Below, piece by piece: positions 1,659-19,882 of a DNA stretch of 19,882 bases. Numbering within the stretch: the stretch's first letter is position 1; every line of letters starts with the position of its first letter. A model generated the notes under the pieces. That model had not been told where the DNA came from and did no database searches. It saw nothing but the letters and a program-made list of their open reading frames with translations. Both the position numbers and the translations under genes were made by a program. This DNA is from a virus (Duplodnaviria > Heunggongvirae > Uroviricota > Caudoviricetes): the IMG/VR virus record IMGVR_UViG_2548876858_000016; one strand, 5' to 3'.

Positions 1659-1707
1659 CATGGCATAGGTATCGAACTCACCAAAACAATTATAGAGGAT
1701 GAGAAAA

Positions 1708-3657: not shown

Positions 3658-3659
3658 AT

Positions 3660-3938
3660 ATGTCAAATCAGAATAAAATTAATGTATTTCAGGTTGAGTC
3701 AAAACATAAAACACCTGTGATAAAACACGTTCGCCGCCATACACGCATCTATACGCCAGAAGAGTTTATGGCAATGCCAATGATAAAGAAACTCATACGA
3801 GACAATCCCGGTCTCGTTGCTATAGATAAAAACAGTGGAGAAATAATGTTATCACGTGAGATTGCCGAAATTTACTGTAGCGTGAATAACAGTAAAAAGT
3901 TGAAAAAGGCAATCAGAAAGATATCAGGAGGAGCATGA
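3660..3938 (+). CDS. Hypothetical basic protein (92 aa)
   Basis: Track ORF, 2 nt after the previous stop; its stop overlaps the next start (ATGA at 3935-3938). Confidence 0.5.
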   Translation: MSNQNKINVFQVESKHKTPVIKHVRRHTRIYTPEEFMAMPMIKKLIRDNPGLVAIDKNSGEIMLSREIAEIYCSVNNSKKLKKAIRKISGGA

Positions 3939-4123
3939 ATATTTATTTCAGAATAGTCATATCACTGGCAATTATCTCATGCATTTACGGATTACTCGTC
4001 CCGTTTCTGATATCAATGAAGGATACGGTAGCGGTAATTTCTGGCTTTGCACTGGCGTTTCTGACCCCGCCATGCATTTATGCCATTTATAAGGGGCTTT
4101 CTTTCACTAAGGATAAAAGATGA
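3935..4123 (+). CDS. Small membrane protein with two hydrophobic segments (62 aa)
   Basis: Track ORF; AGGAGG SD; segments IVISLAIISCIYGLLVPFLI and VAVISGFALAFLTPPCIYAI. Coupled on both sides by ATGA overlaps. Confidence 0.55.
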   Translation: MNIYFRIVISLAIISCIYGLLVPFLISMKDTVAVISGFALAFLTPPCIYAIYKGLSFTKDKR

Positions 4124-4947: not shown

Positions 4948-4954
4948 CTTATAT

Positions 4955-4973
4955 GCCCGGCAGGCCGCCGGGC
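4955..4973 (+). other. GC-rich hairpin (GCCCGGC-aggcc-GCCGGGC) between the SPFH gene and the next gene, without a U-tract
   Basis: Perfect 7-bp GC stem with 5-nt loop; no T-run follows, so not a classical intrinsic terminator; possible RNA-stability or processing element. Confidence 0.4.
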
Positions 4974-4987
4974 TAAGGGAAAAGCAG

Positions 4988-5347
4988 ATGAACACTCATA
5001 ATACTCAACCGCAAATAATGAACTATGACCCAAATCTGACGTTATGCGGACGCATGGCAAAACAAACCGTTCGATTAATTTTCGGGCTATGGGAATACCG
5101 CGAAACATTCGAAGTCACTGTCGGTGGCAACCTGACCGGACTCGATGTTATCAGTTGCGCTATTGAAAGCCTGTACGAAACGCTGCCTTATGAAGAAGTC
5201 GAGGATGAGCGCGATATCATCGCCACCATTAATATCGGCGGCGTGAAATGCAAGGATGAAAACTTGATCGGAGAGCTATGGCTTGCCGGAATGCTTATCT
5301 CAGCAGAAATTATCAGTATTGAACCCGCTACAAACATACGGCTCTGA
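4988..5347 (+). CDS. Hypothetical protein (119 aa)
   Basis: Track ORF; AAGGG SD 8 nt upstream. Confidence 0.5.
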   Translation: MNTHNTQPQIMNYDPNLTLCGRMAKQTVRLIFGLWEYRETFEVTVGGNLTGLDVISCAIESLYETLPYEEVEDERDIIATINIGGVKCKDENLIGELWLAGMLISAEIISIEPATNIRL

Positions 5348-5378
5348 AGTTCTCACAACTCAGGGAACAGGAGAAAAA

Positions 5379-5621
5379 ATGTTCGCTTTGATTAATCAAG
5401 GGCAACTGTATACCGACAGTGCCGGTTACCCGGTAAAAATTATTCGCTGCATAAATAATATCGTGTTGTACAGAAGAATGGATGGGCGAACACAGTCGGT
5501 AAAAATAAACGATTTTAATGAACTGTTTGAACGGATCGATCACCAGGAATACCGACAAATTCTGGCAGAAACAGAGCAGGAAGCTCATCTGAAAAAATTA
5601 CGAGCCATGAAAAGGAAGTAA
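5379..5621 (+). CDS. Hypothetical small protein (80 aa)
   Basis: Internal ATG of track ORF 5283..5621, with AGGAGA SD ~5 nt upstream. Confidence 0.5.
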   Translation: MFALINQGQLYTDSAGYPVKIIRCINNIVLYRRMDGRTQSVKINDFNELFERIDHQEYRQILAETEQEAHLKKLRAMKRK

Positions 5622-5624
5622 AGA

Positions 5625-5771
5625 ATGAATAAAGCATTTGAACGATGGGTCCACCAGCGTTACGGCAATCGCTATGACCTGACACGAGATGTTGACGGTT
5701 TCTACTGTCGTGAAATTGTGAAACGAATGTTTGAAGTGTGGTGCCACTGCCGTGGGCTGAGTGTTGTGTGA
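5625..5771 (+). CDS. Hypothetical small Cys-containing protein (48 aa), not in ORF track
   Basis: My translation: MNKAFERWVHQRYGNRYDLTRDVDGFYCREIVKRMFEVWCHCRGLSVV, stop TGA at 5769-5771. AGGAAG SD ~8 nt upstream; fills the gap between neighbouring genes in the same orientation. Confidence 0.35.
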   Translation: MNKAFERWVHQRYGNRYDLTRDVDGFYCREIVKRMFEVWCHCRGLSVV

Positions 5772-5779
5772 GGTAATGC

Positions 5780-6016
5780 ATGGGCAATGTGATTCAACTG
5801 GCTCCCAATGAATGGGTTTGTGAAAGCGTTCTAATCGCAATTACCGGGCTCAAACCAGGCACAATTCTTCGGGCCCGGAAAGAATGCTGGATGGTTGGAA
5901 GAGAGTATATTCACGTATCACCAGACGGTAATCCAAAGCCTTCCAGTGAATGTATGTATAACAGAAAAGCAATAGATGCCTGGGTTGCTTCAATGAAAAA
6001 CAAACAACCTGGGTGA
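5780..6016 (+). CDS. Excisionase-like (Xis-type) small DNA-binding protein
   Basis: 78-aa ORF immediately upstream of the integrase; EW...R...W...GREY pattern reminiscent of lambda-type Xis; GAGGT SD. Confidence 0.55.
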   Translation: MGNVIQLAPNEWVCESVLIAITGLKPGTILRARKECWMVGREYIHVSPDGNPKPSSECMYNRKAIDAWVASMKNKQPG

Positions 6017-6071
6017 TTTAATGCCATGAAGTATGTAAGCTCGTATCGCTCTTGGGTGTCTGGAGGTATCA

Positions 6072-7385
6072 ATGGATAAAGTCAAATATCCAACAGGCGT
6101 CGAAAACCACGGTGGCACATTACGCATCTGGTTTAATTTTAAAGGTAAACGTGTCAGGGAAAATCTTGGTGTCCCTGACACTGCCAAGAACAGGAAGATC
6201 GCCGGAGAGCTGCGGACATCTGTATGTTTTGCTATTCGTACAGGAAACTTTGATTACGCTGCGCAGTTCCCTGACTCTCCTAACCTCAAGGCTTTTGGGG
6301 TAAGTAAAAAAGAAATTACGGTGAAGGAACTTGAAGAAAAGTGGCTGGATCTGAAACGAATGGAAATCTCTGCAAATGCATTCAATCGCTATGAATCCGT
6401 TGCAAGAACGATGGTTCCGAAAATTGGAGGCAGCAGACTGGTGTCATCGGTAACTAAAGAGGAATTGCTGTATATCAGGAAAGATTTGCTGACCGGATAT
6501 CAGAATTCAACGAAAAACAAAGCAGCAGCAAAAGGACGGAGCGTCGTTACTGTAAATTATTACATGACGACAATCGCTGGAATGTTTCAGTTTGCTGCAG
6601 ATCACGGTTACCTAGAAGCAAATCCTTTCCAGGGAATTAAGCCTCTTAAAAGAGCCAGGGCAGAGCCAGATCCGCTAACTCGTGACGAATTTATTCGCCT
6701 GATAGATGCTTGCCGACATCAGCAGACGAAAAACCTGTGGTCATTGGCTGTGTACACAGGAATGCGTCACGGTGAACTGGTCTCCCTGGCCTGGGAAGAT
6801 ATCGATCTGAAAGCAGGAACTATTACTATCAGGCGCAATTATACGAAACTCGGTGAGTTCGCTCTACCTAAAACTGAAGCAAGTACAAACAGGGTTGTGC
6901 ATCTTATCCAGCCCGCTATCAGTGTCCTGAAAAATCAGGCTGAAATGACAAGACTGGGTAAGCAGCACCACATCAAGGTTCAACTACGTGAATATGGGCG
7001 TTCAGTGAATCATGAATGTACTTTCGTATTTAACCCCCAGGTGGTTAGAAAAAGCAAACAGGTCGGTTTTATCTACAAGGTAGATTCTATTGGCGACTCA
7101 TGGGAAACAGCCATTAAGCGTGCGGGCATCAGGCACCGGAAAGCATACCAGTCACGACACACTTATGCGTGCTGGTCATTATCTGCCGGAGCAAACCCAA
7201 GCTTCATTGCCAGCCAGATGGGCCATGCAAGTGCCCAGATGGTGTTCAATGTATACGGAGCATGGATGACTGACAGTAATGCAGAACAGATCGCAATGCT
7301 GAATCAGAAGCTGGCAGATTATGTCCCAATGATGTCCCATGGTCACCAAAGTGACACAAGAGACTTATTAAAATCAGTGGGTTAG
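6072..7385 (+). CDS. int: Tyrosine site-specific integrase (phage integrase family)
   Basis: 437-aa ORF; GGAGGT SD; C-terminal catalytic-domain pattern (TGMRHGEL, HxxR-type segment SRHTYA, catalytic Tyr in NVYGAWM); stop lies directly at the junction with the host-gene fragment. Confidence 0.9.
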   Translation: MDKVKYPTGVENHGGTLRIWFNFKGKRVRENLGVPDTAKNRKIAGELRTSVCFAIRTGNFDYAAQFPDSPNLKAFGVSKKEITVKELEEKWLDLKRMEISANAFNRYESVARTMVPKIGGSRLVSSVTKEELLYIRKDLLTGYQNSTKNKAAAKGRSVVTVNYYMTTIAGMFQFAADHGYLEANPFQGIKPLKRARAEPDPLTRDEFIRLIDACRHQQTKNLWSLAVYTGMRHGELVSLAWEDIDLKAGTITIRRNYTKLGEFALPKTEASTNRVVHLIQPAISVLKNQAEMTRLGKQHHIKVQLREYGRSVNHECTFVFNPQVVRKSKQVGFIYKVDSIGDSWETAIKRAGIRHRKAYQSRHTYACWSLSAGANPSFIASQMGHASAQMVFNVYGAWMTDSNAEQIAMLNQKLADYVPMMSHGHQSDTRDLLKSVG

Positions 7386-7399: not shown

Positions 7400-7813
7400 C
7401 ATGTTAACTGTGTGGAGGGTAACACCACGCTTTATGCCCTGCCGAAACCCGAGGTTGTCCTGCGCTGGCGTGAGCAGACCACAGATGACTTCCGCTTCTG
7501 TTTTAAGTTTCCGGCGACTATTTCGCATCAGGCAGCATTACGGCATTGCGATGATTTAGTGACTGAATTTTTGACCCGCATGTCACCGTTGGCTCCGCGC
7601 ATTGGACAATACTGGCTGCAACTGCCTGCCACATTCGGCCCACGGGAGCTGCCTGCGCTTTGGCATTTTCTCGACTCTCTTCCCGGCGAATTTAATTATG
7701 GTGTGGAAGTCCGCCATCCACAGTTTTTCGCCAAAGGGGAAGAGGAACAAACGATTAATCGCGGTTTACATCAGCGCGGCGTTAATCGGGTGATTTTCAT
7801 CAGACACGTTTAA
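7400..7813 (+). pseudogene. yecE: Internal fragment of a DUF72-family host gene (yecE-like), disrupted on both sides
   Basis: Frame encodes ~135 aa (VEGNTTLYALPKPEVVLRWREQTTDDFRFCFKFP...GVEVRHPQFF...) with no plausible start. Assignment to DUF72/yecE is from memory of the family. The fragment sits between the integrase and the serine recombinase. Confidence 0.5.
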
Positions 7814-7914: not shown

Positions 7915-9438
7915 ATGAAACGTGTAATCAGCTACATCAGATTCAGTTCTGAGCGACAAGCCAAAGGCGACTCACTACGCAGACAGTCTAAGATGGTTAA
8001 TGACTGGCTTAAGGCTCATCCTGAGTACTACCTTGACCAAGATTTATCCTTCCGTGATTTGGGGGTGAGTGGGTTCACTGGTAAGCACTTGAAAGGTGGC
8101 TTAGGTGACTTTTTAACCGCTATCGAGAAAGGGCTTGTTAAAGCTGGTGATACGCTCTTGATAGAATCTCTTGACCGTCTGTCACGTCAAGATGTAGACC
8201 AAGCAAGTGAGCTACTCAGAAACATTCTTCGCTCTGGTGTAGATGTGGTCACCTTGTCCGATGGTGAACATTACACACGAGAATCTCTTAAAGACCCGTT
8301 AGCTCTGATTAAAAGCATTCTGATAATGCAGCGGTCGCATGAGGAGAGTTTGAGGAAGTCTGAGCGTATACAAGCTGCATGGAACCGTAAAAAAGAACTC
8401 ATCTCTGAAGGTATCAAGATTTCTAAACGTTGTCCTGCATGGCTTAAGCTTAATGATGACCGTAAAAGCTTCTCTGTAATCCCTGAGAAAGTGGAGACTG
8501 TGAAGAGGTGCTTTCAGCTACGGTTAGAGGGTAAGTCTATCTGGGAGATTGTCAGGACTCTTAATGATGAAGGTCACCAGACGCTTAACCAATATAAAGC
8601 GGGTTCATTTGGTCAAACCTCAGTACAAGACCTTCTGAAAAATCGCTCTGTAATTGGTTACTTCACACCTAAAGGCTGTGAAGAGATAGCTGATTATTAT
8701 CCTGCAATTATAGATGAAACAACATTCTACAAAGTCCAGCAACTATCATATGCTCGTTACGGTAGAAAACCTGCTTCAGATAAGCCAATGGCTGTGAATC
8801 TTTTCAAAGGTGTTATCCGTTGCTCTGAATGTGGTCATGCTCTGATTATCACAGGCTTTAGCGATACAAGAAACGGGATTTATCGCTGTCCCCTTCGTAA
8901 TGAAAACCGTTGTAGTGCTAAAGGGCTGTCACGTAAGCAAACCGATGGTACATTGCTTACCCTGCTATCTCGTCTTGACCGATTTGATAGCGATACGACG
9001 AATACCATCGATACACTGAAGTTACACCGTGAACACATCTCAAGCAATATTGAGAAGCTGGTACAGCTATCACTTGAAATTGAAGATTTGTCAGCTATTA
9101 CCAGCAAGCTAAAACAACTAAAGAATGAGCTATCACAGGTTGATGCGGATATCGAGAAGGAGACACAACGCCTTAAATCTATTGATGTGGGGTGTTTGTC
9201 TGATTGTGACTTGACTACAAAGGCGGGAAGGATTGAAGCACAACTGATAATCAAAAGTGCTGTTAAAGAGGTCGTTTTAAATACTGCTAAACGTCGATGT
9301 AAAGTGACTTTTCACAACGGTAAGGTAATTGACCTACCAATAACAGAAAACCCCTCAGACAACGTTACAGAGGCTATACAGTCGCTTTCTGAAGTCACTG
9401 AGAGGGGTTTAATAGATGTTGATGAGGTTATCATATAG
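7915..9438 (+). CDS. Large serine recombinase (resolvase catalytic domain + recombinase domain + zinc-ribbon)
   Basis: 507-aa ORF; N-terminal YIRFSSERQ with catalytic Ser; Cys cluster CSECGH...YRCPLRNENRC; C-terminal coiled coil. Confidence 0.85.
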   Translation: MKRVISYIRFSSERQAKGDSLRRQSKMVNDWLKAHPEYYLDQDLSFRDLGVSGFTGKHLKGGLGDFLTAIEKGLVKAGDTLLIESLDRLSRQDVDQASELLRNILRSGVDVVTLSDGEHYTRESLKDPLALIKSILIMQRSHEESLRKSERIQAAWNRKKELISEGIKISKRCPAWLKLNDDRKSFSVIPEKVETVKRCFQLRLEGKSIWEIVRTLNDEGHQTLNQYKAGSFGQTSVQDLLKNRSVIGYFTPKGCEEIADYYPAIIDETTFYKVQQLSYARYGRKPASDKPMAVNLFKGVIRCSECGHALIITGFSDTRNGIYRCPLRNENRCSAKGLSRKQTDGTLLTLLSRLDRFDSDTTNTIDTLKLHREHISSNIEKLVQLSLEIEDLSAITSKLKQLKNELSQVDADIEKETQRLKSIDVGCLSDCDLTTKAGRIEAQLIIKSAVKEVVLNTAKRRCKVTFHNGKVIDLPITENPSDNVTEAIQSLSEVTERGLIDVDEVII

Positions 9439-9452
9439 TTGAGATTCTATCG

Positions 9453-10226
9453 TCAGTAGCGCTTATTCGGATTCACCGAAAACTTCTTCAAAGTACTACC
9501 TGTACCAGCATTATTAAGCACCTTTGAAGCTTGCTCATTAGCGGCATCTGAGAAGGTGCTTTTTCCGTTCTTAACTCTGACATTCCTACCACAATTGATA
9601 CGGGCTTGAAGTTGCTCATTAGAAAGTTCACTCGTAGAGCGATTATATAGCTCCTGACACATCAACATACCGTTACCTAAGCTTGTCGTAGTGTTCCCTG
9701 TATTCTTTTTGCTGGTAGCACCACCATCATTTGTAGTAGCTGTCTTTCCAGTAGCAGCCGAAATATCAGTTTGACCCACAATAGCTTTAAAGTTAATTTC
9801 CTGAAAAGTTAGCTGGATTCTTAGACCATTTGAAATACCAACATCTTTAGAGGCTTTAAAGCTTGTAATAATGGAGTCATCAATTTTAATACCATCTTTA
9901 CAGATGACCGAAATAATCTGCTTCTGGTCACGCCAGTTTTCAAGAGTGTCGATGAAGTTCTCCACCAGCTTATTATCTCTTGAGATAAGGATACTACCGG
10001 ATTCACCAACCACAACCACACCACTGATTGAAATAGTTCTTGGTGAACGCATTACATTATCTGTTACAGTCTGCCCTGATTGCATATTTTGAGTGGTCAC
10101 CATCATAGGGCTGTCATATTCCATCTGTTCAGTTGCTGATAAGGTTAAGAAATTATCTGGCTGTCCTTGTAGATGGAAGTAAACACCATCTTTACCAGTG
10201 TAACGAAGCTGACTAGTGTAAATCAT
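9453..10226 (-). CDS. Hypothetical protein (257 aa); possible tail component by position downstream of the tape-measure-like gene
   Basis: Track ORF; GGAGA SD 5 nt upstream of ATG; convergent with the recombinase gene. No domain recognised. Confidence 0.55.
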
Positions 10227-10309
10227 TAAATTCTCCTTTGATTTCAGAGACTTAGTGTATTTTAATCATTTTTAACCAAGCCTTTGATATATAAGTGTTT
10301 TCTCTGTTA

Positions 10310-10376
10310 AGCGTGAGCTACGTAAAAAATAATTTTTGGTGGGTATATCTGTTCAGAAGATTTCACGTAGCACACG
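10310..10376. promoter_or_regulatory. Copy A of a duplicated intergenic regulatory element (AAGCGTG..TACGTAAA..GTGGGTAT..CAGA..TTTC..ACGTAGCACAC)
   Basis: Shares ordered conserved blocks with 12501-12594; arms CGTGAGCTACGT / ACGTAGCACACG form an 11/12 inverted repeat; lies upstream of gene 9453-10226. Confidence 0.5.
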
Positions 10377-10389
10377 GATATATAAGAAA

Positions 10390-12480
10390 TCATTCTTCCT
10401 CTGGATAGCTTGAACTTAAGAGCATATCCTGCGTGAACTGGTCATTAGCTGATTGATTGAAAGTAAAGAAAGCTGGTTCATCCGGTCTAACAATTGCTTC
10501 ACCAGTGATATTAACTGACAAGGGCTTCTTAGCTTCTACTGTTAAAGCATCAACCTTGCGTGATAGCTCACTAATAGTCATTGCAAGTTGAGCATTACTA
10601 TTAACCATGTCACCCGTAATAGCTGGTGGAGTTGATTGTGTGTTATTTACGAAGTTATTCATCGGTTCTTGGGAGTTAGCAATTTTATCAGCTGCACTAC
10701 TAAACCAACCTTTAACATCGTCCATAGTGAACACTGGTTTAAGTCCAGACTCTTTAGCTAGCTCTGGTAATTTAGCTTGTGCTTCCATTCGTTCAGGTGT
10801 AGAAGCTAATCTTTCATAACCTGCATAGATAGCACTACCAGCTAATAGCATATTCATAGGGTTTAGTCTTGATGGTTTCCCATTCTTTCTATTCACGTTA
10901 TCCGCTGTGGTATCAGCGACCTGACCTAATCTTGTGATAGCAGTCATAAGCCCGTAAATACTTCTGGTTACACCAACAACTTTATTCACAGCAATAACAC
11001 CAGCCAAGACTTTTAAACTATTAATCAAGCCAGAACCTAAAGCATCAACTACTTTCTTTTGCTCATCGGTTAAACCACGATAAGCTAATGTCACCTCATC
11101 GAAGAATGCTCTTACCCTGTAGCTGATATCAGTCAATGAATCGACACCATGCGACATATCGCTCATCAAGCTACCAAGAGATTCACCAAGACTTTTACCA
11201 CTTCCACCAAGAGCGTTTAAAAGCGTTGTTAGGCTTCTTGTGAAATCTTGAAGACCATTTTCAGAACCTCTGAAGATACTATCAAGCGTGGTATTCCAAG
11301 AGTTTTTCAAGTTCCCTAGTTGTGCCTGTGTACTTTCTGAAATGGCTTTCCAGCCACCTTTAGCGGTGATTTGTCTATTCAGTTCCTGAGTGACCTTCTG
11401 AAGAGTATCGGCAGATTTTAAAGCCCCCTTCTTCATGGCATCAAATAATTCCTGTTCACTCTTTCCGGTTGCTTTAGCGAATACCTGAACCATACCAGGA
11501 ACAGCTTCAGCCAGTTGCCCCTTAAGCTCTTCAGCCATAATCTGACCCTTACCAGCCATCTGTGATAATGCTGTCAGTGCTCGCTTAATCTCTTCTTCAC
11601 TTCTCCCCATCAGACGAGCATAGCCAATCATATTTTTAAAAAGTTCTTCAGAACCTTGAATACCCATAGACTCTTTAGCTGAAGCACCAAAACCAGCAAA
11701 CTGTGATTGCAGTTCAGCGATATCTAAACCCGTTGTTTGAGCTAATGACTTTGTGAACTCTTTTACCTGACCTGCATCTTTATCAAATACGAAATCAATT
11801 GAACGCTCAGCACTTGCACGCTGTAAACCAATTTCCATAATCTTCTGATAACTGGCTAATACAGCCTGCATTGAGATAAATGCACCTGCTGTTTTAACTG
11901 CTGCTGAAGACAGGTTATCAAGACTATTAGCTGCTCTGTCAGCATTAATGCTGGTGGATGTATGACCTCTGGCTTTAGCAATTGCTTCTCTGACTGAAGC
12001 GTTTAACTGAGCTAACTTCTCATTGAATTTTGAAGAATCCATTGACCCGGCTTTAGCAGATAGCCCGTAAAACTGAGATTTGATGTATTTCTGCAAAATA
12101 GGGTCAAAGCCTTTTAGCTTAGACATATTAGCTGAGTAAGCCGCTGTGATTGCTCTGTTGCCGCTAATTAGTGGCTGTCTTGGCTGTCTAAGTGGCTTTA
12201 AAGTATCCTCAATTTCCGTTTTAATCTTAAACGCTCTAGTGTTTTTAAGACGCTGCTCAATCTTGTCAAAGGTCTTATTAAACTTCCTTTCAAGTTGCCC
12301 TAAAGAACTTGTCAGATTGCTGTCAAGTTGCTTGGTATCGACCTTAAACGCTCTATTCAAATTGCGTTCAATTCTTTGTGCTGACTGCAAAGCTGCCTTT
12401 TCAACTCTTTGCAGTCCCTTAATAACGTTTTCATTGAAGCCTAGCTCAACGATAAAACTATCAACTGTGAATTTGCTCAT
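10390..12480 (-). CDS. Phage tail tape-measure-like protein
   Basis: 696-aa ORF; central region (GSEELFKNMIGYARLMGRSEEEIKRALTALSQMAGKGQIMAEELKGQLAEAVPGMVQVFAKATGKSEQELFDAMKKG) matches the tape-measure core pattern; coiled-coil N-terminus; GAGGTG SD. Confidence 0.7.
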   Translation of the reverse strand: MSKFTVDSFIVELGFNENVIKGLQRVEKAALQSAQRIERNLNRAFKVDTKQLDSNLTSSLGQLERKFNKTFDKIEQRLKNTRAFKIKTEIEDTLKPLRQPRQPLISGNRAITAAYSANMSKLKGFDPILQKYIKSQFYGLSAKAGSMDSSKFNEKLAQLNASVREAIAKARGHTSTSINADRAANSLDNLSSAAVKTAGAFISMQAVLASYQKIMEIGLQRASAERSIDFVFDKDAGQVKEFTKSLAQTTGLDIAELQSQFAGFGASAKESMGIQGSEELFKNMIGYARLMGRSEEEIKRALTALSQMAGKGQIMAEELKGQLAEAVPGMVQVFAKATGKSEQELFDAMKKGALKSADTLQKVTQELNRQITAKGGWKAISESTQAQLGNLKNSWNTTLDSIFRGSENGLQDFTRSLTTLLNALGGSGKSLGESLGSLMSDMSHGVDSLTDISYRVRAFFDEVTLAYRGLTDEQKKVVDALGSGLINSLKVLAGVIAVNKVVGVTRSIYGLMTAITRLGQVADTTADNVNRKNGKPSRLNPMNMLLAGSAIYAGYERLASTPERMEAQAKLPELAKESGLKPVFTMDDVKGWFSSAADKIANSQEPMNNFVNNTQSTPPAITGDMVNSNAQLAMTISELSRKVDALTVEAKKPLSVNITGEAIVRPDEPAFFTFNQSANDQFTQDMLLSSSYPEEE

Positions 12481-12500
12481 TCATATTTTTCACCTCTTTA

Positions 12501-12594
12501 AGCGTGTTGTACGTAAATTCTATTTTTCAGTGTGGGTATTAGCTTTACAGATTTCATGAGGATAATTCTTATCCGAATCATCACGTAGCACACA
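12501..12594. promoter_or_regulatory. Copy B of the duplicated intergenic regulatory element, upstream of the tape-measure-like gene
   Basis: Same conserved blocks as 10310-10376 with a ~27-bp insertion; contains CACGTAGCACACAGGAT (12582-12598). Confidence 0.5.
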
Positions 12595-12622
12595 GGATTC
12601 GATAGAAGACTATCTCATATAC

Positions 12623-12663
12623 AAAAAAGGGAGAGCTACCGATGTCACTCGATAATCTCTCCC
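12623..12663 (-). terminator. Candidate intrinsic terminator on the minus strand (GGGAGAG / CTCTCCC stem, 21-nt loop, U6)
   Basis: 7-bp GC-rich stem at 12629-12635 / 12657-12663; on the minus-strand transcript it is followed by UUUUUU (plus-strand A6 at 12623-12628). Loop is long for a terminator. Confidence 0.4.
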
Positions 12664-12688
12664 GTTGATTTTTACCCAACCAATCTTT

Positions 12689-12892
12689 TTACCTAACCAG
12701 ATAATAATTACCATCTTCACCGACAATCTGACAATCACTTGGTAATTTATCAAGACACCATTTAGCGATTCTTCTGATTCTATTCTTTTGCTTAGAGGTG
12801 GATGATTTGATTCGTTTTGGTTTGTTGGGTTGTTCTTTCAATCGTTCACTAATTGCTTTAATAAGCTCATAGCGTTCTGTTAAATCAATCAT
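12689..12892 (-). CDS. Hypothetical small basic protein (67 aa)
   Basis: Track ORF; strong AGGAGGTG SD; Lys/Arg-rich centre (KPKRIKSSTSKQKNRIRRIAK). Confidence 0.5.
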   Translation of the reverse strand: MIDLTERYELIKAISERLKEQPNKPKRIKSSTSKQKNRIRRIAKWCLDKLPSDCQIVGEDGNYYLVR

Positions 12893-12916
12893 TCACCACC
12901 TCCTTTTAATTCATAG

Positions 12917-13657
12917 TTAAAGTGCCTTTGCATATTTCTGAGAAATCTTCACTAACTGCTCAATATCAGCCTGCATAGCAATTTTCTTCTGTGATTCATA
13001 TTCACTAACAAGCTCTTTCATAGTATCAAGCTCTTTTTTAAGCTTTTGCTTTAACTTATCCAGCTTATCGGAGTAATGCTTAGTCAGATTAGCTTCAGCT
13101 AACTGAAGAATCTCTTCATCTGTTTTGTTAGTCATCAGGATATATGAGCCTGTACCACGTGAAGCTTGTCTGACATCCATTAATCGAAAACCGTCAGGAA
13201 TACTTTGAAGCACTTTTGGAACATTCTCTCTTGCTGTACCGAAACCATTGTTGTAATTTCCTTCGTAATAGATAAACGGGTTTGTCTTAAGCTCATATTC
13301 AATATCATATTCTGAAGGTTTCTGAGTTTCTTCGAAGTTTTTGACAACATCATAAGCATTATCAAGCTTGATGCGCTGCTCTTTTAGTAGTGGATAGTAC
13401 TTCCTCTCAAGTGCAATCAGAGCTTCTGTCTTGCAAACATCAGTCATTTCCAGAGGCTCAGGATTGATATATTCAAGATTATTGGCTGGAACAATCTTTC
13501 GCAGCCTTTCTTTTTTGGCCTCTTCATCTGCAAGCTTGGCAATAATTTTGTGATAAGGTTTCATATGTGCATACTCATCTCCTTCATCAGTAAAATGCAA
13601 ATCATATGCACAAGGTTTTCTATCAACAATCGCTTCATGTTCATCACGGATAGACAT
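12917..13657 (-). CDS. Hypothetical protein (246 aa), charged with coiled-coil C-terminus
   Basis: Track ORF; GAGGAAAA SD ~9 nt upstream. Confidence 0.55.
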   Translation of the reverse strand: MSIRDEHEAIVDRKPCAYDLHFTDEGDEYAHMKPYHKIIAKLADEEAKKERLRKIVPANNLEYINPEPLEMTDVCKTEALIALERKYYPLLKEQRIKLDNAYDVVKNFEETQKPSEYDIEYELKTNPFIYYEGNYNNGFGTARENVPKVLQSIPDGFRLMDVRQASRGTGSYILMTNKTDEEILQLAEANLTKHYSDKLDKLKQKLKKELDTMKELVSEYESQKKIAMQADIEQLVKISQKYAKAL

Positions 13658-13692
13658 TATTATTTTTCCTCTTCTAAGATAATTTATGTTTC

Positions 13693-13774
13693 AGTTTTTA
13701 AAAAGCACACCTGACAGCCTACGAACTTAGAAGAGACTTAAAAGGCGGTTTGCCAAGTGCGCTTTTTAAAAGCT
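13693..13774. repeat. 18-bp inverted repeat (AGTTTTTAAAAAGCACAC ... GTGCGCTTTTTAAAAGCT, 16/18) with ~47-bp spacer
   Basis: Seen directly in the sequence, inside a 470-bp ORF-free gap between minus-strand genes. Confidence 0.6.
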
Positions 13775-14130
13775 GAAAAAGCCCTAGATAACTAAAACGC
13801 TATAAAGGGCTAAGGTGAAGAAATTAAAGAACATCCAAAGGATTCAATAACGAATGAACAAAGACTTTTTGAGATAGCCTATCTAGTGTGGGCTAAATAG
13901 GCCATGACGAAAAGCATTGCACCTTTCCAACTCAGAATAACTATCATTGATGTAGAATGATTAATAGTTTAATTCAGGAAGAGTTGCTCTCCCCTATTAC
14001 CATCATCTCATGCTTAAGGTTATTTGTCAACAGCTTTTAACAGATTGATAACATCAATTCTTATTTACTGTGTTACCCACCCAGCAACCAACAAATAAGC
14101 CAAGCAACGTCCAAGCAATTATTAAGCCCA

Positions 14131-14454
14131 TTAGTGAACCCTCACGGAATCCGTAACCAAAATATTATCGCTGTACAGGATTGTCACAGCACCTTTCAAA
14201 AATCGCTCTGGGGAAATACTGTATTTGTTCGTTTGCTCAATAACCAATCTTTTCATATTACTGTCTGTAATTGGTAACATCATTCGAGGCTCGTTAAACT
14301 CCACCGAGTGAATAAAGTCAGAGATGCTTTCCGCATTATCAGCCATTAACTCTAACAACTTATCAAAGTCAATGCTAACACCTACATCAGTGAAAGCCTG
14401 AATCATCATGGCGGTGTCGGTATCAATAAAAATCTGTAGTGGGAAATTATTCAT
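14131..14454 (-). CDS. Hypothetical protein (107 aa)
   Basis: Internal Met of track ORF 14131..14565 (MNNFPLQIFIDTDTAMM...), with AGGA SD 9 nt upstream. Confidence 0.5.
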   Translation of the reverse strand: MNNFPLQIFIDTDTAMMIQAFTDVGVSIDFDKLLELMADNAESISDFIHSVEFNEPRMMLPITDSNMKRLVIEQTNKYSISPERFLKGAVTILYSDNILVTDSVRVH

Positions 14455-14592
14455 TTTTAAAATCCTATAAAAACACATCTTAAATCTGCCAAAATAGCCA
14501 TTCTGAGGCCAGTAACCATGCGGGTTACAGAGGGAGTGAGACACCTTAGTAATAGGGTAGCTCATCTTTGAGTCTCACTCATTCTCACAGAC

Positions 14593-14979
14593 TTACACAG
14601 ACGCTTTAATCTTGTAGTATTGACTACGTGATAAGCCGTATTTCTCAGAAATATAACTTTGTGATTGTCCTTTGGTGATTGCATCAATGATTAAATCTTT
14701 ATCGTATCTGTTACCGTTGGCTTTGTGCTTGTCACTATTTTTAATAGAGTTGAAGTTCTCCATTAATTCAATGGCGTCTTTAAGGTCGCTTTCGTAAGCA
14801 TAATCAAAACCTCTGATAAACTCGAAATCACCATTATCTTTTTGTGCTTCAGCCCAGATATCAAATCTTGAGGCTAATTGCTGGTGGGTAAACTTGGGCT
14901 TATTGGTTTGTGTTACGTCTTTCCAGACCTTACCGTCAAATCTTACCAAATGGTCACGATGCTTATAAAAATCATACAT
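14593..14979 (-). CDS. Hypothetical protein with C-terminal HTH (128 aa)
   Basis: Track ORF; GGAGG SD; C-terminal ITKGQSQSYISEKYGLSRSQYYKIK resembles a resolvase/Hin-type or small-terminase-type HTH. Start overlaps the upstream stop (TAATG). Confidence 0.55.
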   Translation of the reverse strand: MYDFYKHRDHLVRFDGKVWKDVTQTNKPKFTHQQLASRFDIWAEAQKDNGDFEFIRGFDYAYESDLKDAIELMENFNSIKNSDKHKANGNRYDKDLIIDAITKGQSQSYISEKYGLSRSQYYKIKASV

Positions 14980-15257
14980 TAAACCTCCATTGCTAATTTG
15001 TGAATTTTGATACTTAGTAATCTTGCTAAATCCAGTCCAAAGGCATTTAGAGCCTTCAGACTATCAAGGTCATCTTGCTTAATCCTGATATGGTGTCTTG
15101 CTGCCTCTAAACGACTATTAAGCAAATCCTGCTCGTTAATATCACGGTTAATTGCAAGCTTCATCACTGCTGAGTGTGGCAGACCTGTAATGTTTTTGAT
15201 TCGGTTAAGTTCGTCAAAGGCTGTCTTTGTAACTCTGGTTAAAGTGTGCTTAGTCAT
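14979..15257 (-). CDS. Hypothetical protein (92 aa)
   Basis: Track ORF; tightly packed between neighbours in one minus-strand operon. Confidence 0.5.
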   Translation of the reverse strand: MTKHTLTRVTKTAFDELNRIKNITGLPHSAVMKLAINRDINEQDLLNSRLEAARHHIRIKQDDLDSLKALNAFGLDLARLLSIKIHKLAMEV

Positions 15258-15260
15258 TAT

Positions 15261-15824
15261 TTAAAATCCTTCTGCTTGTGCGTACACGTCAAATTCAAAG
15301 TCTGGCTCACTGCTTGTAAGACTGATATTACCAACGGTAATATGATGCTCGACAATACCAATTAACTTTGCGCACATCACAGCAAGTAATGCGCAATAGG
15401 CATCGCTTGGTAACTCATGGCTTAACCTGGTTGCCTGACGCTGGAGATGGTTTGTCACGGTAGCTGAGTTAATTTCATCAAGATTCTTTAGAAGATAAAA
15501 CAATTTCTTGTTGTATTTTGGGTGCCCCTCACTTCTGCAAAATCCGATAAGAATGTCGTCAAGCTTGCTCGGTAATTGCTCGTAGCTGTCAAAGTTAGCC
15601 AGATAATTCTTGATGCTGTTCTTTGTTGTTTTGCGTACTGACATATAACGACTCCTCGGTGTAATTGCCCGAATTACTTCGTCAATGCCTTTGCGTTCTG
15701 CTCTGGTGAACTTGGGTGCTTCGTGGCTGGTGGGGGAGTTTGTGTAGCTGTAGGAGTTGTAGGAGTTGTATCTGTTACGTTGTCTCGATGCCTGAAGCAT
15801 CGCTCTAAATTCTCTGTCGTTCAT
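15261..15824 (-). CDS. Hypothetical protein (187 aa) with in-frame 9-bp tandem repeat
   Basis: Track ORF; AAGGA SD 11 nt upstream; GTAGGAGTT x2.3 at 15750-15770 encodes NSYNSYSY. Confidence 0.55.
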   Translation of the reverse strand: MNDREFRAMLQASRQRNRYNSYNSYSYTNSPTSHEAPKFTRAERKGIDEVIRAITPRSRYMSVRKTTKNSIKNYLANFDSYEQLPSKLDDILIGFCRSEGHPKYNKKLFYLLKNLDEINSATVTNHLQRQATRLSHELPSDAYCALLAVMCAKLIGIVEHHITVGNISLTSSEPDFEFDVYAQAEGF

Positions 15825-15910
15825 TCATAAGCTAGTCCTTATAATTGTTAATTCTCTGTTAACTTATATAGACAATACTAGCATTTTCAAAGACTAATGT
15901 CAAGCATTTT

Positions 15911-15940
15911 TTAACATTTCATTAACATCTGTGGTATAAT
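15911..15940 (+). promoter_or_regulatory. Candidate sigma70 promoter with extended -10 (TTAACA-18-TGgTATAAT)
   Basis: TATAAT at 15935-15940 preceded by TG at 15932-15933; TTAACA at 15911-15916. Confidence 0.5.
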
Positions 15941-16122
15941 GGTTCTATGGGGAGAGTAAAATATAAAGGCGTGGCTATGAGAGTGGTCATATGGTTATTG
16001 CATTGCACACAGACCTCTTCAATCGCTCTGTAACGAGTTAAATGGCCTCTTCAGGTCAACATATAAGGTCAGGTACTTTTTTGTGTCAGAATGCGATTGA
16101 GAGCGTCTTACAAGGAAAACTA

Positions 16123-16299
16123 ATGGTAAATCTCCCTCCTGAGCTGGGGTCACCTGATGTATGGGCTGGTGGAGGTGTTGGGCTGATTGCAGGTCTGCTA
16201 CTTCGCTACGTCCTCGTCAGAGTGCTTGTTGTCTTTAAACTGTTCGGTCGTACATGGACGCTTGACCTTAAGGATAACGACCACACAGAACCCCGTTAA
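16123..16299 (+). CDS. Candidate small single-TM protein (58 aa)
   Basis: Internal ATG of track ORF 16042..16299, with AAGGA SD 6 nt upstream; hydrophobic segment VGLIAGLLLRYVLVRVLVVF; downstream of the 15911-15940 promoter. Confidence 0.35.
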   Translation: MVNLPPELGSPDVWAGGGVGLIAGLLLRYVLVRVLVVFKLFGRTWTLDLKDNDHTEPR

Positions 16300-16340
16300 A
16301 CTCCCTTCAAAACCCCCTGTACGTGATGGTATAGGGGTAT

Positions 16341-16357
16341 CTTTAGCATTTTGTGCT
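16341..16357. promoter_or_regulatory. Copy 1 of 17-bp dyad motif CTTTAGCAWWWWGTGCT
   Basis: CTTTAGCATTTTGTGCT; internal dyad AGCA-N5-TGCT; same motif recurs at 17471-17487 and inverted at 17501-17517. Confidence 0.45.
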
Positions 16358-16525
16358 ATCTATTAATAAATAGCTTGACATAACCGGAAAACTGAATCTA
16401 TCAAGTATTCACCCCTCTGACAGTAATTTCTAAAAATGCTTATTTTTCAATGAGTTGTAATTAGCCAATATAAAGGACTGACAAGACTCTTCACAGAGAA
16501 CTTTCAAGACTCACTAAGACACAAG

Positions 16526-16562
16526 GCGATAACCCCAGACAGGGAGAGCCTCCTTCTTAACC
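16526..16562. repeat. Direct repeat copy A (GCGATAACCCCAGACAGGG...TCTTAAC)
   Basis: ~75% identical to 16696-16732; contains a CCCC-N5-GGG mini-hairpin. Confidence 0.5.
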
Positions 16563-16695
16563 GACTTCTTAAACAATCTTTACAGACCCCCGTTCACCAG
16601 TCTCAATATTTTTATTTCTCGCTCTTCGTTTTTTGCTCGTTTCTATTATTGAGGGGGTTTGAAAAACCTCTGTAAAATAACCCTTCCAGTAAAAA

Positions 16696-16732
16696 GCGAA
16701 TAACCCCAGAAAGGGGAAATCGCATCTTTAAC
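16696..16732. repeat. Direct repeat copy B (GCGAATAACCCCAGAAAGGGG...TCTTTAAC)
   Basis: Pairs with 16526-16562; contains the perfect hairpin CCCCagaaaGGGG. Confidence 0.5.
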
Positions 16733-16763
16733 ATTCTCGTAATCAGTGCTCTATATGAGAACT

Positions 16764-17432
16764 TCAGCCCAACCTTTGAACAATCCTGTAAGTGGTGCTT
16801 AGAGGTATTCTTAGCGATTCTGCGATGCTCTTGATGGGTTGCCCTTGGTCATACATTTTAATCAACCTGTCAAGCGTCTGTGCATCGTGCATATGAGGTC
16901 TTCCACGTAAACCACCCCTGTTAACCACGGCAAGTAAAAGCATTGTGTCACCACAATAGATTGTCTGGGTAACTTCAACTTTCGGTTTGCGGGGTGTGTT
17001 CCTGTATATCAAAACGCAACTTGGAAACGGTGAGCGCACTACAACACCTCTCTTTCCTGCTGGTGGAAGGTATTTGACTGCTCGGTGTAACGTTCGAATC
17101 TCATGCAGGAAGGGGTTTGTATATACACACCGAAGCCAGTAAGTTGTCTTTGACCTGAGCGGAACCAGACATACACACACATCAGCTTCAGGGGCTTTTA
17201 AGAGGAACTTTTCAGCCATGCTAAACGGCGGGTTAACGAAGACCCGTTCACCAACCCATGATTGATTGTGAATATCATCGGTGAACCGTGGCAACAATGC
17301 GTCATACTCAGTTGCAGCACCATCTAGACTGAAGTTAAACTCACGATGCAGGTTATGAAATAAACGATACGGTGTACGCCAGTCATCAGAACCACCATGA
17401 TAACGACCAACATTGATTATTGGATGCGACAC
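16764..17432 (-). CDS. Phage Dam-family N6-adenine DNA methyltransferase fused to a C-terminal resolvase/Hin-type HTH
   Basis: 222-aa ORF with GTG start (AGAGGGG SD ~10 nt upstream). N-terminal ~150 aa shows DDWRTP...F.F.LDGAA...NPPFS...SPFPS, which I recognise as the phage Dam MTase pattern; C-terminal GRPHMHDAQTLDRLIKMYDQGQPIKSIAESLRIPLSTTYRIVQRLG resembles a serine-recombinase HTH. Confidence 0.7.
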   Translation of the reverse strand: MSHPIINVGRYHGGSDDWRTPYRLFHNLHREFNFSLDGAATEYDALLPRFTDDIHNQSWVGERVFVNPPFSMAEKFLLKAPEADVCVCLVPLRSKTTYWLRCVYTNPFLHEIRTLHRAVKYLPPAGKRGVVVRSPFPSCVLIYRNTPRKPKVEVTQTIYCGDTMLLLAVVNRGGLRGRPHMHDAQTLDRLIKMYDQGQPIKSIAESLRIPLSTTYRIVQRLG

Positions 17433-17470
17433 AAGCGAAGCGCCCCTCTTAGTATATTTCTTAATCGTCT

Positions 17471-17517
17471 CTTTAGCATTTAGTGCTTTTTGTTAAGTTT
17501 AGCACTTTTTGCTAAAG
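17471..17517. promoter_or_regulatory. Inverted pair of the 17-bp dyad motif, upstream of the Dam-HTH gene; candidate operator
   Basis: CTTTAGCATTTAGTGCT (17471-17487) and reverse complement of CTTTAGCAAAAAGTGCT (17501-17517), 13-bp spacer; 40-85 bp upstream of the GTG start; a minus-strand TATACT -10 candidate lies at 17451-17456. Confidence 0.45.
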
Positions 17518-17944
17518 ACAAAAGCATTGACAAAATGGTAGGATTGTTCACATAGCCCTTACTTAACAGACTCTTAAGAGCTTTGAAACAGCCTGTTTAA
17601 CAAGGTCACTACCTCTGGTCTTATCGTTCCCTTCTTTCTAGGTAGTCATCTGTTAAGAACTTTTCAGTTTTATTCTTAAGATAATTGTTAAGATGATACT
17701 CTCCCTTCGGGTTATATCGTATCTCTCCTCCCGTTAAATATCCCTTCACAGTCAGACTAAATAACACCTGTGTAGTTTCTTGGTAGAATCTTTCAAGGTA
17801 ACTTAACTCTGAGTTTATGAAGTTGACCTATGAGATAGACTCTACCGAATCTGTTAGTCAATTGTTGCTTAGGTGCTGCTAAGGCTTACTTAGTGGGAAG
17901 AGAGGGAATATGTGACCATAGGAACCCCTCCTGTTAAAAGCTTC

Positions 17945-17972
17945 TTGACGTTACTATCTCGATATGTATAAT
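17945..17972 (+). promoter_or_regulatory. Near-consensus sigma70 promoter (TTGACG-16-TATAAT)
   Basis: TTGACG at 17945-17950, 16-bp spacer, TATAAT at 17967-17972; no credible ORF downstream. Confidence 0.5.
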
Positions 17973-17979
17973 GGCTTAC

Positions 17980-18148
17980 TGTACTAGGTTTACTTCCAAA
18001 GCAACCAAGCACACTCTCTATGGCAGTGTCCAGCGAGGTAAGGTCGTGTAGGGTGCGGTTCGGTGGGGTAAGGTTTGGTGCGGTATGGGTGGATTGTCGT
18101 AGCCACGTTAAAAATCGACTTATAGGGACTCTTTCGGGAGTCCTTTTT
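17980..18148 (+). ncRNA. Candidate ~170-nt small RNA bounded by promoter and intrinsic terminator; G-rich internal tandem repeat
   Basis: Starts ~7 nt after the -10 and ends at the 18125-18148 terminator; contains GGTAAGGT...GGTGCGGT twice (18046-18095); the only overlapping ORF (18020-18298) reads through the terminator and looks non-coding. Confidence 0.4.
18125..18148 (+). terminator. Rho-independent terminator (GGACTC-tttcgg-GAGTCC + T5)
   Basis: 6-bp stem at 18126-18131 / 18138-18143, T-run 18144-18148; plus-strand specific. Confidence 0.6.
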
Positions 18149-18298
18149 AGTTTGTATAAAATCTGTACAGTAACTTTTCAGAGTCTGAAAATTTTTATAA
18201 ATATCGTAGTAACCCCTCTACATTCCCCTTCACCGATAATTTTCAAAAATATCTACACTCAATTGATGGCTGTTAAGTACCCCAGATTCACGATATAG

Positions 18299-18308
18299 CC
18301 CCCCCCCC
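18299..18308. repeat. Homopolymeric C10 tract
   Basis: Ten consecutive C in intergenic DNA, immediately upstream of a promoter-like TTGCAA-16-TATAAC (18310-18337). Confidence 0.9.
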
Positions 18309-19048
18309 TTTGCAAAAGCAGTTAAAATATCTATAACCAACCATTGACTTTCTTCATGATATCTGTTTAGCCCCACCTCAATAAGCCATCATCACACATC
18401 AAAGCATCTATCAAGAAGGTTTAACCTATCAATAGCTGTAACATTTTATAGTTCTGTGAAGTCCTATCCAGTTTTCTCTGTAACAGCTACAAACTTCTGT
18501 GACCTTATGTGTCAATGACTTATAAGACATGCTCTCAAGGTGCTGTATAGCCTCTTATCAGCCAATACACAAAACCCTTATAAATCAGTACTGATATGTA
18601 TACAGTATGTTTTTAACATAATAGCTGTTTTACGCACTAATAAGCACCTACGTAGATTCTGTATAGAGATTAAGATGTCTCTAAGTGATTTTTTAAGAGG
18701 AGATACGAAGGAACTATAACCATCACTTCATAACTTTCACGTAGGTAACTATTAAGTAGGTTGATAGTCACTTTGAGGGAATATTGATAGTGACCAACTG
18801 CATAGACACCGTTATATAGCCCTGTATATAGCACTATATGTAGTGTCTGGAGAGGGACGACTAACACGATATAGTTTACCCTGAAAAGAGGATTTACAGA
18901 TTCTCTATACATTTCAATAAGTTATGATAAAAAGGGGCTATGTCGATACTGTATAGAATCTGTGTAGGATTGCATAGATACTTGGAAAAATACCGTTAAA
19001 TTGCATAGGTACTAACCTGTTTATGTCCTGTTATTTACAGGCATAGCA

Positions 19049-19882
19049 TTATTGGTTAATTAATTCATCCGACTCTATATCATTACCTTTTTCTTTTTCC
19101 TTTTTAATTTTAGCCTCTACCATATCGAACATTTTCATTGTCTGTGATGAAGTTAGCTCTTTCTTTTGTCGTAGCGCGTTACGTATGGTAGAAGCTTCAA
19201 TATCAGAAACTGTTAAAAGTTCTTCTACCCTACTCTTCAATTGCTGTAATGAACGGCTATTATCAACTTTAAAGAAATCATCCATTACCTCAAGTGAGGC
19301 AACAATCAAATCCTGTAGTCTCTCTTTTTCTATCTCGATATTTTCAATGGTTTGTTTTTCTTTAGATACTAACTGCTTTAAATTATTAATTTCTTTCTGA
19401 ATCAGTTTCTTCTCTGTCTGTAGCTCTTCTGTGACCAGCTCTTCACGCTTACCACGCTCTACTTCCGCTTTAATATCAGCATCAATTTTAGCATTTTCTT
19501 TCTCTTCTTCTCTGGCAGCCCGAACCTTTAACCCCGTTAACCTGATTGAATCCAAGTATTCTTTTTCCTTTGTAAGATAAACATTTTCATTGTGTTTATC
19601 TGTAGCCCATTTTTGAGCAAGAGAAAGTAACCATTGAGCATAAGGAGTAATAACAGCTAGCACACCTCCAAAAAAGACAGGAGCAAGCAGATAATGAGCG
19701 TAAAAATATTCCTGAGATAGTATATAATCTATTCGAAACTTAACAGGCGCATCACTCATAAAGAGCATTGCTAAGTTAGGCCAGTTGAACCATACCCATG
19801 CAAGAATGATATATCCCCATAATGGGCTTTTAATCCTATCGTTTATTGCTTGCATAGTAGAATCTAACCACCCATCACTCAT
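19049..19882 (-). CDS. Membrane-anchored coiled-coil protein (two N-terminal TM segments + long K/E-rich coiled coil); start at or beyond window edge
   Basis: Track ORF; hydrophobic segments LWGYIILAWVWFNWPNLAMLF and YLLAPVFFGGVLAVITPYAQWLL, then heptad-like K/E-rich sequence. The Met at 19880-19882 is the last codon in the window, so the true start may lie outside. Confidence 0.55.
   Translation of the reverse strand: MSDGWLDSTMQAINDRIKSPLWGYIILAWVWFNWPNLAMLFMSDAPVKFRIDYILSQEYFYAHYLLAPVFFGGVLAVITPYAQWLLSLAQKWATDKHNENVYLTKEKEYLDSIRLTGLKVRAAREEEKENAKIDADIKAEVERGKREELVTEELQTEKKLIQKEINNLKQLVSKEKQTIENIEIEKERLQDLIVASLEVMDDFFKVDNSRSLQQLKSRVEELLTVSDIEASTIRNALRQKKELTSSQTMKMFDMVEAKIKKEKEKGNDIESDELINQ

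Follow-up and report, generated by a model that had tools for sequence, protein, structure and literature searches.

The 19,882-nucleotide (nt) stretch of Caudoviricetes DNA analyzed here (IMG/VR record IMGVR_UViG_2548876858_000016; hereafter the window) raises the question of whether a 58-codon open reading frame (ORF), lying on the plus strand behind a near-consensus promoter, is a real gene and, if so, what its small product does for the element that carries it. A first-pass annotation of the bare sequence had proposed an extended -10 promoter, a long leader and a peptide of the kind seen among type I toxins, Kil-like or exclusion peptides. Comparison of the copies of this locus establishes, at the level of sequence, that the ORF is a real gene on which purifying selection acts, and the same comparative evidence demonstrates that this gene belongs to the core of a family of integrative islands in Enterobacteriaceae. 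Its product represents a new protein family of narrow distribution, within the familiar class of small membrane proteins encoded by phage-related elements, and we tentatively propose a role for it as a membrane effector in phage infection.

The case for a gene rests on how the ORF varies between copies. Across ten loci, pairwise dN/dS ranges from 0.05 to 0.33, the variable sites by codon position number 23, 9 and 36 of 55 (chi-square 16.1, p=3e-4), and all insertions or deletions within the ORF are 3, 6 or 12 nt long, so that the frame is always kept. Conservation of the protein sets in exactly at the proposed methionine, and the in-frame upstream extension that would begin at an ATG at 16042 is without conservation (all positions are those of the window unless a locus is named). 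The Shine-Dalgarno (SD) sequence retains AAGG or AGGA in all variants, and the SD-ATG layout is kept in every copy. All 18 related loci fetched, and a Salmonella island as well, have an intact ORF, and in an O157:H7 island whose tape-measure protein (TMP) gene has been split by IS1203, the peptide gene survives together with its promoter. The ATG with its AAGGA SD and the 58-residue product are present where the first-pass annotation had placed them, and the lack of conservation in related elements that it had named as grounds for abandoning its proposal is not observed, as the ORF is whole in every island copy examined. In the Escherichia coli NT1F10 copy, PGAP enters the ORF as a hypothetical protein (WP_000247749.1), and other intact copies have been left unannotated or uncalled (Table 1). 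Protein homologues from E. coli and Citrobacter, with identities as low as ~70%, form 55 clusters, and an exhaustive profile search against 1.84 billion representatives yielded 15 matches, all of them in the same island family.

The promoter assigned to this gene was likewise found as claimed, with a score of 11/12 in addition to the TG extension (TGgTATAAT, 15932-15940). In a window of the same size and composition, 0.063 promoters scoring at least 11/12 with TG would be expected by chance, and the string TGnTATAAT occurs once on both strands of the 19.9-kb window, namely in this promoter. Its core, TATAATGG, is unchanged in 14 of 14 copies (13 read by script and the Salmonella copy by direct reading) and is directly preceded by TG-G or TG-A, depending on the copy. 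Transcription of the peptide mRNA would start near 15947.

Across copies, the predicted protein is 56-64 residues long. AlphaFold2 models a single helix over residues 11-54 (mean pLDDT of 91 for residues 21-30 and 89 for residues 31-40), and the Kyte-Doolittle maximum over 19 residues is 2.27, which bears out the one hydrophobic helix of the first-pass annotation; its description of that helix as strongly hydrophobic is somewhat overstated, as two invariant arginines, R28 and R33, lie inside the hydrophobic span. The N-terminal tail comprises 13 acidic, proline-rich residues and contains the invariant motif NLPxELGS. It is followed by the hydrophobic span with a small-xxx-small (GxxxGxxxG) zipper at positions 16, 20 and 24, where position 16 is Gly or Ser and G17, G18, G20 and G24 are invariant; motifs of this type are linked to the packing of transmembrane helices and to oligomeric pores. 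After the span comes an invariant, basic, amphipathic juxtamembrane stretch (RYxxVRVxxVFxLFGxxWxxDLK), and the protein ends in a short, acidic tail of variable length, in place of which some copies have a frameshifted extension. In the core alignment, the invariant residues include N3, L4, P5, E7, L8, G9, S10, W14, L21 and A23 as well as R28, Y29, R33, V34, V37, F38, F41, G42, W45, D48, L49 and K50. The net charge is -2 over residues 1-13 and +4 over residues 28-45, from which the positive-inside rule would place the N-terminus in the periplasm and the C-terminus in the cytoplasm.

No existing family claims this protein. The peptide had no match in Pfam, PHROG, NCBIfam, PADLOC or the PDB (for Pfam and the PDB, even at E<=10), a tblastn search of 50,697 phage records with the peptide yielded zero matches, and Smith-Waterman alignments of the peptide to ten small or membrane ORFs of phage FelixO1 scored no better than shuffles. 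The Kil-like label is unsupported, as no similarity was found and a membrane helix is predicted for the peptide; lambda Kil, Rac KilR and DicB are soluble small proteins acting on FtsZ or Min, and Kil proteins are not known to be membrane helices.

The mRNA leader carries conserved structure of its own. In the window copy it measures 176 nt from the probable start, so that the length of about 180 nt first reported is right here; the length is not a dedicated feature, as ~100 nt of it are an optional insertion. The conserved core of the leader spans 75-81 nt and optional insertions account for the rest, with six of the 14 copies checked lacking the ~100-nt insertion and having leaders of 75-124 nt (75-81 nt if nothing is inserted). 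The suggestion that the leader could host an RNA structure held up, as a conserved stem-loop (H1) keeps its pairing in all variants. This pairing survives five different one-sided changes (in L008, L006/L015, L007, L012 and the window; L-numbers designate related loci), and its loop tolerates insertions of 12-50 nt, such as those found in L004, L005, L012 and L016. As H1 needs G-U pairs, it exists in the plus-strand RNA only, which points to the plus strand as the functional RNA. Downstream of H1 lies an invariant box, TTGCATTGCACACAG, and 81% of positions are invariant over 15985-16013 as compared to 62% for the ORF.

The optional ~100-nt insertion in the window leader is a palindromic repeat that folds into one long hairpin with imperfect pairing (dG -33.6 kcal/mol, z = -3.4) and belongs to a repeat family of ~100-127 nt, with conserved arms (AGACCTCnTCAATCGCTCTGTAACGAG and AGAATGCGATTGAGAGCGTCT) and a variable core that ends in T6. 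The repeat is restricted to the island family of the peptide (406 genomes). The leaders of L003, L005, L008/L009, L010/L011, L016, L017, L018 and L021 are without it, and islands carry the leader copy, a second copy beside the gene for an HNH endonuclease, or both, the DNA orientation of the second copy being the same as that of the leader copy. As the repeat is island-specific and has a second copy elsewhere, it is read as a structured repeat and not as a dedicated riboregulator of the peptide. Two other interpretations of this hairpin were considered and rejected: a genome-wide miniature inverted-repeat transposable element, since it is found in one island family only, and a trans-antisense RNA to the leftward operon, which is not general, since the second copy is absent from the window and some islands are single-copy. 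In 7 of 9 independent folds, a 5' purine tract pairs with codons 4-6 of the ORF (UCUCCCUC) and closes the leader; both partners are of low complexity, so this pairing is a hint only. Rfam searches returned nothing at the gathering threshold over the whole window and, at E<=5 over 15800-19100, a chance-level match to a Streptococcus small RNA only.

The region between the peptide gene and its leftward neighbors may place both under common control. A minus-strand operon divergent from the peptide gene and starting at 15824 had been proposed, and it is borne out by an ATG at that position with its own promoter back-to-back to the rightward one. In the compared copies, the -35 box of this leftward promoter (CTTGACAT, minus strand) is conserved; an extra copy of the same box is found at 16374-16381. 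Four TAACA/TGTTA boxes form two pairs, each with 11-nt spacing, in mirror symmetry about ~15887, and in each pair it is the second box that stays invariant across copies, including a TAACAT that lies within the spacer of the rightward promoter. Promoter spacers are ordinarily free to vary in sequence, and the invariant box in this spacer is a hint of regulation. The boxes are candidate operators spanning both promoters, and the 92-residue and 128-residue products of the leftward operon, the latter with a weak HTH_28 match, are by inference only candidates for binding them.

A hairpin past the ORF had also been proposed, and it was confirmed and mapped to 16314-16337. Copies from E. coli, E. 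albertii and Salmonella retain it, L008 and L010 have other hairpins in its place, and its weak T tail on the plus strand makes it terminator-like only; a UUUU trails it on the minus strand, and chance alone would yield 1.3 such hairpins over the scanned region. Conserved non-coding sequence runs for ~400 nt past the ORF. Several repeats lie in this part of the island. Directly past the hairpin, at 16340-16358, is an operator-like palindrome (CTTTAGCA-N5-TGCTAAAG), which is also found at 17470-17487 and 17501-17518 as an inverted pair upstream of the minus-strand start (17432) of the gene for a Dam-HTH methyltransferase. The gene-free stretch before this methyltransferase gene holds a direct repeat beginning ATAACCCCAGAnAGGG, at 16529-16561 and 16700-16732 with a spacing of ~171 nt, and related islands have one more tandem copy of the 16529-16732 repeat region.

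The island that carries the gene occupies ~12 kb of the window and belongs to an integrative family of 11-13 kb. Its gene order is constant: a large serine recombinase, a Dit-like protein, the TMP, ORFs of ~71, ~240 and ~107 residues, an HNH gene in some copies, ORFs of 71/128, 92 and ~185 residues, the divergent promoters and the peptide gene, past which come 1-2 kb with few, variable genes (Dam-HTH, AP2, a small resolvase, an ORF of ~270 residues). The position of the peptide gene is constant across three integrase arrangements and four chromosomal sites. Relatives of the island were detected in 452 of 5,426 complete E. coli genomes (~8%), all chromosomal and in at most four places per genome, and its hosts include E. 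coli, E. albertii, Citrobacter and Salmonella. A scan of genome contigs returned one locus only, in E. albertii, and when the region was compared at the DNA level with phage and plasmid collections, nothing matched. In E. coli NT1F10 the island is 97-99.5% identical and interrupts yecE between yecD and yecN. We considered whether the O157 copy corresponds to SpLE2 of strain Sakai and did not adopt this assignment, as the sole positional information found puts SpLE2 near sbcB. Pfam, PHROGs, PADLOC and NCBIfam offer nearly nothing for the neighbors of the peptide gene. The 187-residue protein encoded divergently from it has 1,084 homologues in E. coli, Shigella, E. fergusonii and Salmonella, all hypothetical, has no family match, and is modeled by AlphaFold2 as all-helical at low confidence (mean pLDDT 48).

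Table 1. Features of the window and of related loci; positions are those of the window unless an L-numbered locus is given.
Feature	Position	Strand	Detail
Rightward sigma-70 promoter	15911-15940	+	-35 TTAACA 15911-15916; 18-nt spacer; TG 15932-15933; -10 TATAAT 15935-15940
Leftward promoter of main island operon	15875-15903	-	TTGACA-17-TAGTAT with TG; operon ATG 15824
TAACA/TGTTA boxes	15847-15928		TGTTAA 15847, 15858; TTAACA 15911, 15922
Leader stem-loop H1	15971-15990	+	GUGGCUA (15971-15977) pairs with UGGUCAU (15984-15990); G-U pairs
Invariant leader box	15998-16012	+	15-mer; abuts SD in six insertion-free copies
Optional island-specific palindromic repeat	16013-16111	+	~100 nt; between leader box and SD
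Shine-Dalgarno AAGGA	16112-16116	+	6 nt ahead of ATG 16123
58-codon ORF	16123-16299	+	Predicted single-pass inner-membrane protein MVNLPPELGSPDVWAGGGVGLIAGLLLRYVLVRVLVVFKLFGRTWTLDLKDNDHTEPR; stop TAA 16297-16299
Hairpin past ORF	16314-16337		CCCCUGUAC-GUGAUG-GUAUAGGGG; 9 base pairs, 5 of them G-C; weak T tail on plus strand
Host island	7915-19882		~12 kb
Large serine recombinase	7915-9438	+
FelixO1 ORF68-like/Dit-like gene	9453-10226	-	257 residues
TMP gene	10390-12480	-
About six ORFs without assigned family	TMP up to 15824		Leftward operon
187-residue protein	15261-15824	-	Divergent from peptide gene
Dam-HTH methyltransferase	16764-17432	-
Gene-poor stretch	17433-19048		No PGAP gene in NT1F10 copy
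277-residue ORF	19049-19882	-
End of lambdoid-type prophage	1-7385		Unrelated to island; tandem at yecE locus
S24 CI-like repressor	872-1564		Prophage
Helix-turn-helix protein	1699-2205		Prophage
SPFH	4120-4947		Prophage
DUF5406	4988-5347		Prophage
Tyrosine integrase	6072-7385		Prophage
5' part of yecE (DUF72)	7412-7813		133-codon fragment; precedes island
Intact but unannotated or uncalled ORF copies	L015 12298-12471; L016 10715-10888; L021 7583-7756		L015 O157:H7; L016 avian pathogenic E. coli (APEC) O18; L021 Salmonella
Second repeat copies	L016 9001-9127; L004 5108-5228; L006 4998-5118; L005 8283-8403		Just downstream of HNH endonuclease gene (leftward operon)
Island sites	yecE; dinB-lafU; near putA; another		yecE: E. 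coli, O157:H7, Citrobacter; dinB-lafU: APEC O18; near putA: Salmonella enterica; another with tyrosine integrase

Two genes of the island connect it to a group of virulent phages. The Dit-like protein shares 72-73% protein identity with ORF68 of FelixO1 (83% DNA identity over 553 nt), which is the gene directly after the FelixO1 TMP gene, and, along its full length, the island TMP shares 29% identity with Felixounavirus TMPs, with conservation at the DNA level at its two ends only. None of the remaining island ORFs match FelixO1. Three short matches (45, 40 and 34 nt at 82-87% identity) connect the gene-poor stretch of the island (17597-17639, 18163-18201 and 18304-18337) with a gene-free part of the FelixO1 genome at ~13.0-13.45 kb, and these could be shared cis-acting packaging or replication sites. 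Salmonella, one of the island hosts, is the classical host of FelixO1, and FelixO1-like phages are used for Salmonella typing and biocontrol. Together, this suggests that the island is a satellite-like or tail-interference element tied to virulent FelixO1-type phages. In the literature that was searched, we found neither a described island carrying TMP and Dit genes nor a satellite of Felixounavirus, and the link to FelixO1 is apparently undescribed.

Several known systems resemble parts of this arrangement. The nearest functional precedent is LidI, a 66-residue transmembrane protein, initially unannotated, of the PLE satellite of the virulent myovirus ICP1 in Vibrio cholerae; it is made upon infection and has been experimentally shown to collapse lysis inhibition (PMC7182436). 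PLE integrates with a large serine recombinase (PMC7182436), and both it and the present island are integrative elements with such a recombinase and a link to a virulent myovirus, the island having genes in common with FelixO1 in the TMP and the ORF68-like protein only. The likeness of LidI to the peptide is one of description, in that both are small (66 and 58 residues), predicted transmembrane proteins that were missed by annotation and resemble no other family; the role of LidI is experimental, whereas the peptide is known from sequence alone. The small size of the peptide, its single predicted helix and its small-xxx-small zipper, suited to oligomerization, also recall the holins and pinholins, among them the pinholin S21 of phage 21, whose transmembrane helices carry a glycine zipper. 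However, it has one transmembrane segment where these have two or more, and it lacks a dual-start motif, a late operon and the setting of a lysis cassette, with a divergent operon and the Dam-HTH gene as neighbors and no adjacent endolysin or spanin. With the morons that encode T4 Imm and HK97 gp15 it has in common the autonomous unit of promoter, ORF and hairpin (here a weakly canonical terminator) and a small inner-membrane protein within a phage-derived element, but the peptide gene sits at a divergent control region instead of among late or tail genes, and there is no homology.

We propose that the peptide is a membrane effector in phage infection that is co-regulated with the leftward operon, a model that we regard as tentative, with our confidence in the whole of it remaining somewhat short of even. 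One DNA-binding protein at the TAACA repeats would hold both divergent promoters, which would fire together upon activation of the island. The stem-loop of the leader and the invariant box by the SD would tune the stability or translation of the mRNA, and the helix would self-associate in the inner membrane through its glycine zipper. There the peptide would act during phage infection, perturbing membrane integrity or lysis timing, in the manner of a holin or LidI or by abortive infection, to the benefit of the island. A narrower version of this model, which we consider doubtful, makes the peptide the conserved membrane effector of a so far undescribed family of PLE-like islands that parasitize or defend against virulent FelixO1-type myoviruses and that use their own TMP and hub-proximal proteins to redirect or poison the tails of the helper; infection would then switch on the control region, the zipper helix would oligomerize, and lysis timing would be reset or the infection aborted.

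The strongest competitor is a constitutive protective moron, in which the inner-membrane peptide blocks an early step of phage infection, such as DNA entry or insertion of the tape measure, and the resulting superinfection exclusion aids both the host and retention of the island. T4 Imm and HK97 gp15 are small inner-membrane exclusion proteins, and a stand-alone unit of strong promoter, small ORF and hairpin that points away from the main operon and stays intact even where an insertion sequence has destroyed the TMP gene of the island would suit such a function. The conserved and presumably periplasmic NLPxELGS suggests a specific contact, and the FelixO1-type tail-tip genes of the island make a tie to tail-membrane events conceivable. 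On the other hand, the peptide bears no resemblance to known exclusion proteins, an entry block would be self-defeating if the island needs that phage as its helper, and an unvarying box within the promoter spacer points to regulated rather than constitutive expression, so that we consider exclusion unlikely while giving it serious weight. A benign modulator, binding a host or island membrane protein through the zipper helix without membrane damage, as MgrB, AcrZ and SafA modulate sensor kinases or transporters, would account for a zipper and invariant flanks suited to specific helix-helix binding, for purifying selection along nearly the whole peptide, and for the tolerance of the gene alongside a strong promoter. 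It is nonetheless improbable, as no partner is evident, no second predicted membrane protein was identified in the island, and the restriction of the family to one island type (those 15 representatives) makes an island- or phage-specific job likelier.

The remaining two explanations place more weight on the RNA. In a type I toxin-antitoxin system, a membrane-depolarizing toxin would be held off by an antisense RNA and a folded leader, and post-segregational killing would stabilize the island. The peptide resembles Hok, Ldr, TisB, Ibs, ShoB, ZorO and DinQ in its size (fewer than 60 residues), composition, single hydrophobic helix, charged C-terminus and structured, conserved 5' leader, and the pairing of the purine tract with codons 4-6 could occlude initiation. 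This pairing is without strict covariation, however, and the antisense promoter on the minus strand that the first-pass annotation had suggested looking for was not evident opposite the leader, the ORF or the 3' flank, where the best candidates score 8-9/12 without TG and none is credible, in a sequence test that a weak promoter could escape. The transcript of the divergent promoter does not overlap, the invariant leader box has no complement elsewhere in the island, no Rfam family applies, and there is no match to the Hok, Ldr, TisB, Ibs, Sho, Zor, DinQ or other Pfam toxin models. Type I toxins are in addition repeated chromosomal loci, whereas the peptide gene has a fixed, single-copy place in one island type. 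The type I label is accordingly unsupported, and we regard this explanation as highly improbable. Least credible of all is that a non-coding RNA (the leader, the hairpin element or the downstream gene-free region) is the real product and the ORF is incidental. Conservation of the leader box region above that of the ORF, the conserved non-coding sequence beyond it and the weakness of the trailing hairpin as a terminator would agree with an RNA product, but the codon-position bias, low dN/dS, in-frame indels and universal intactness indicate selection on the protein, the SD and ATG are retained in every variant, and Rfam offers no match. A combined coding and RNA role is conceivable.

For the membrane effector model itself, a number of observations count against it. 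The peptide has no similarity to any holin, toxin or exclusion family, and its proposed function is read from context and composition only. Its simple-sum insertion energy is positive (+1.7 kcal/mol) given R28 and R33 in the span, so that membrane insertion is predicted rather than certain. The peptide string is absent from the supplements of enterohaemorrhagic E. coli ribosome profiling and Enterobacteriaceae microproteome studies, as is the promoter string from the transcription start site supplements for EDL933. The TAACA-box heptamer shows no enrichment window-wide, and the island is itself no more than a putative satellite of FelixO1-like phages. A strongly toxic product would be hard to carry behind a near-consensus promoter and a good SD, and no antitoxin or immunity partner was identified. 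Finally, an intact gene in a degraded island fits a host-beneficial constitutive gene at least equally well.

Annotation systematically undercounts the small membrane proteins that mobile elements encode, and the peptide described here is an example under clear selection; the island that carries its gene occurs in ~8% of complete E. coli genomes and has few other conserved genes. Were the peptide no more than an accessory protein tolerated in the membrane, the finding would be an ordinary one. If instead it controls lysis timing, abortive infection or exclusion, the phage susceptibility of clinically relevant strains would be affected, and the island would be an enterobacterial counterpart to the PLE/ICP1 system of Vibrio.

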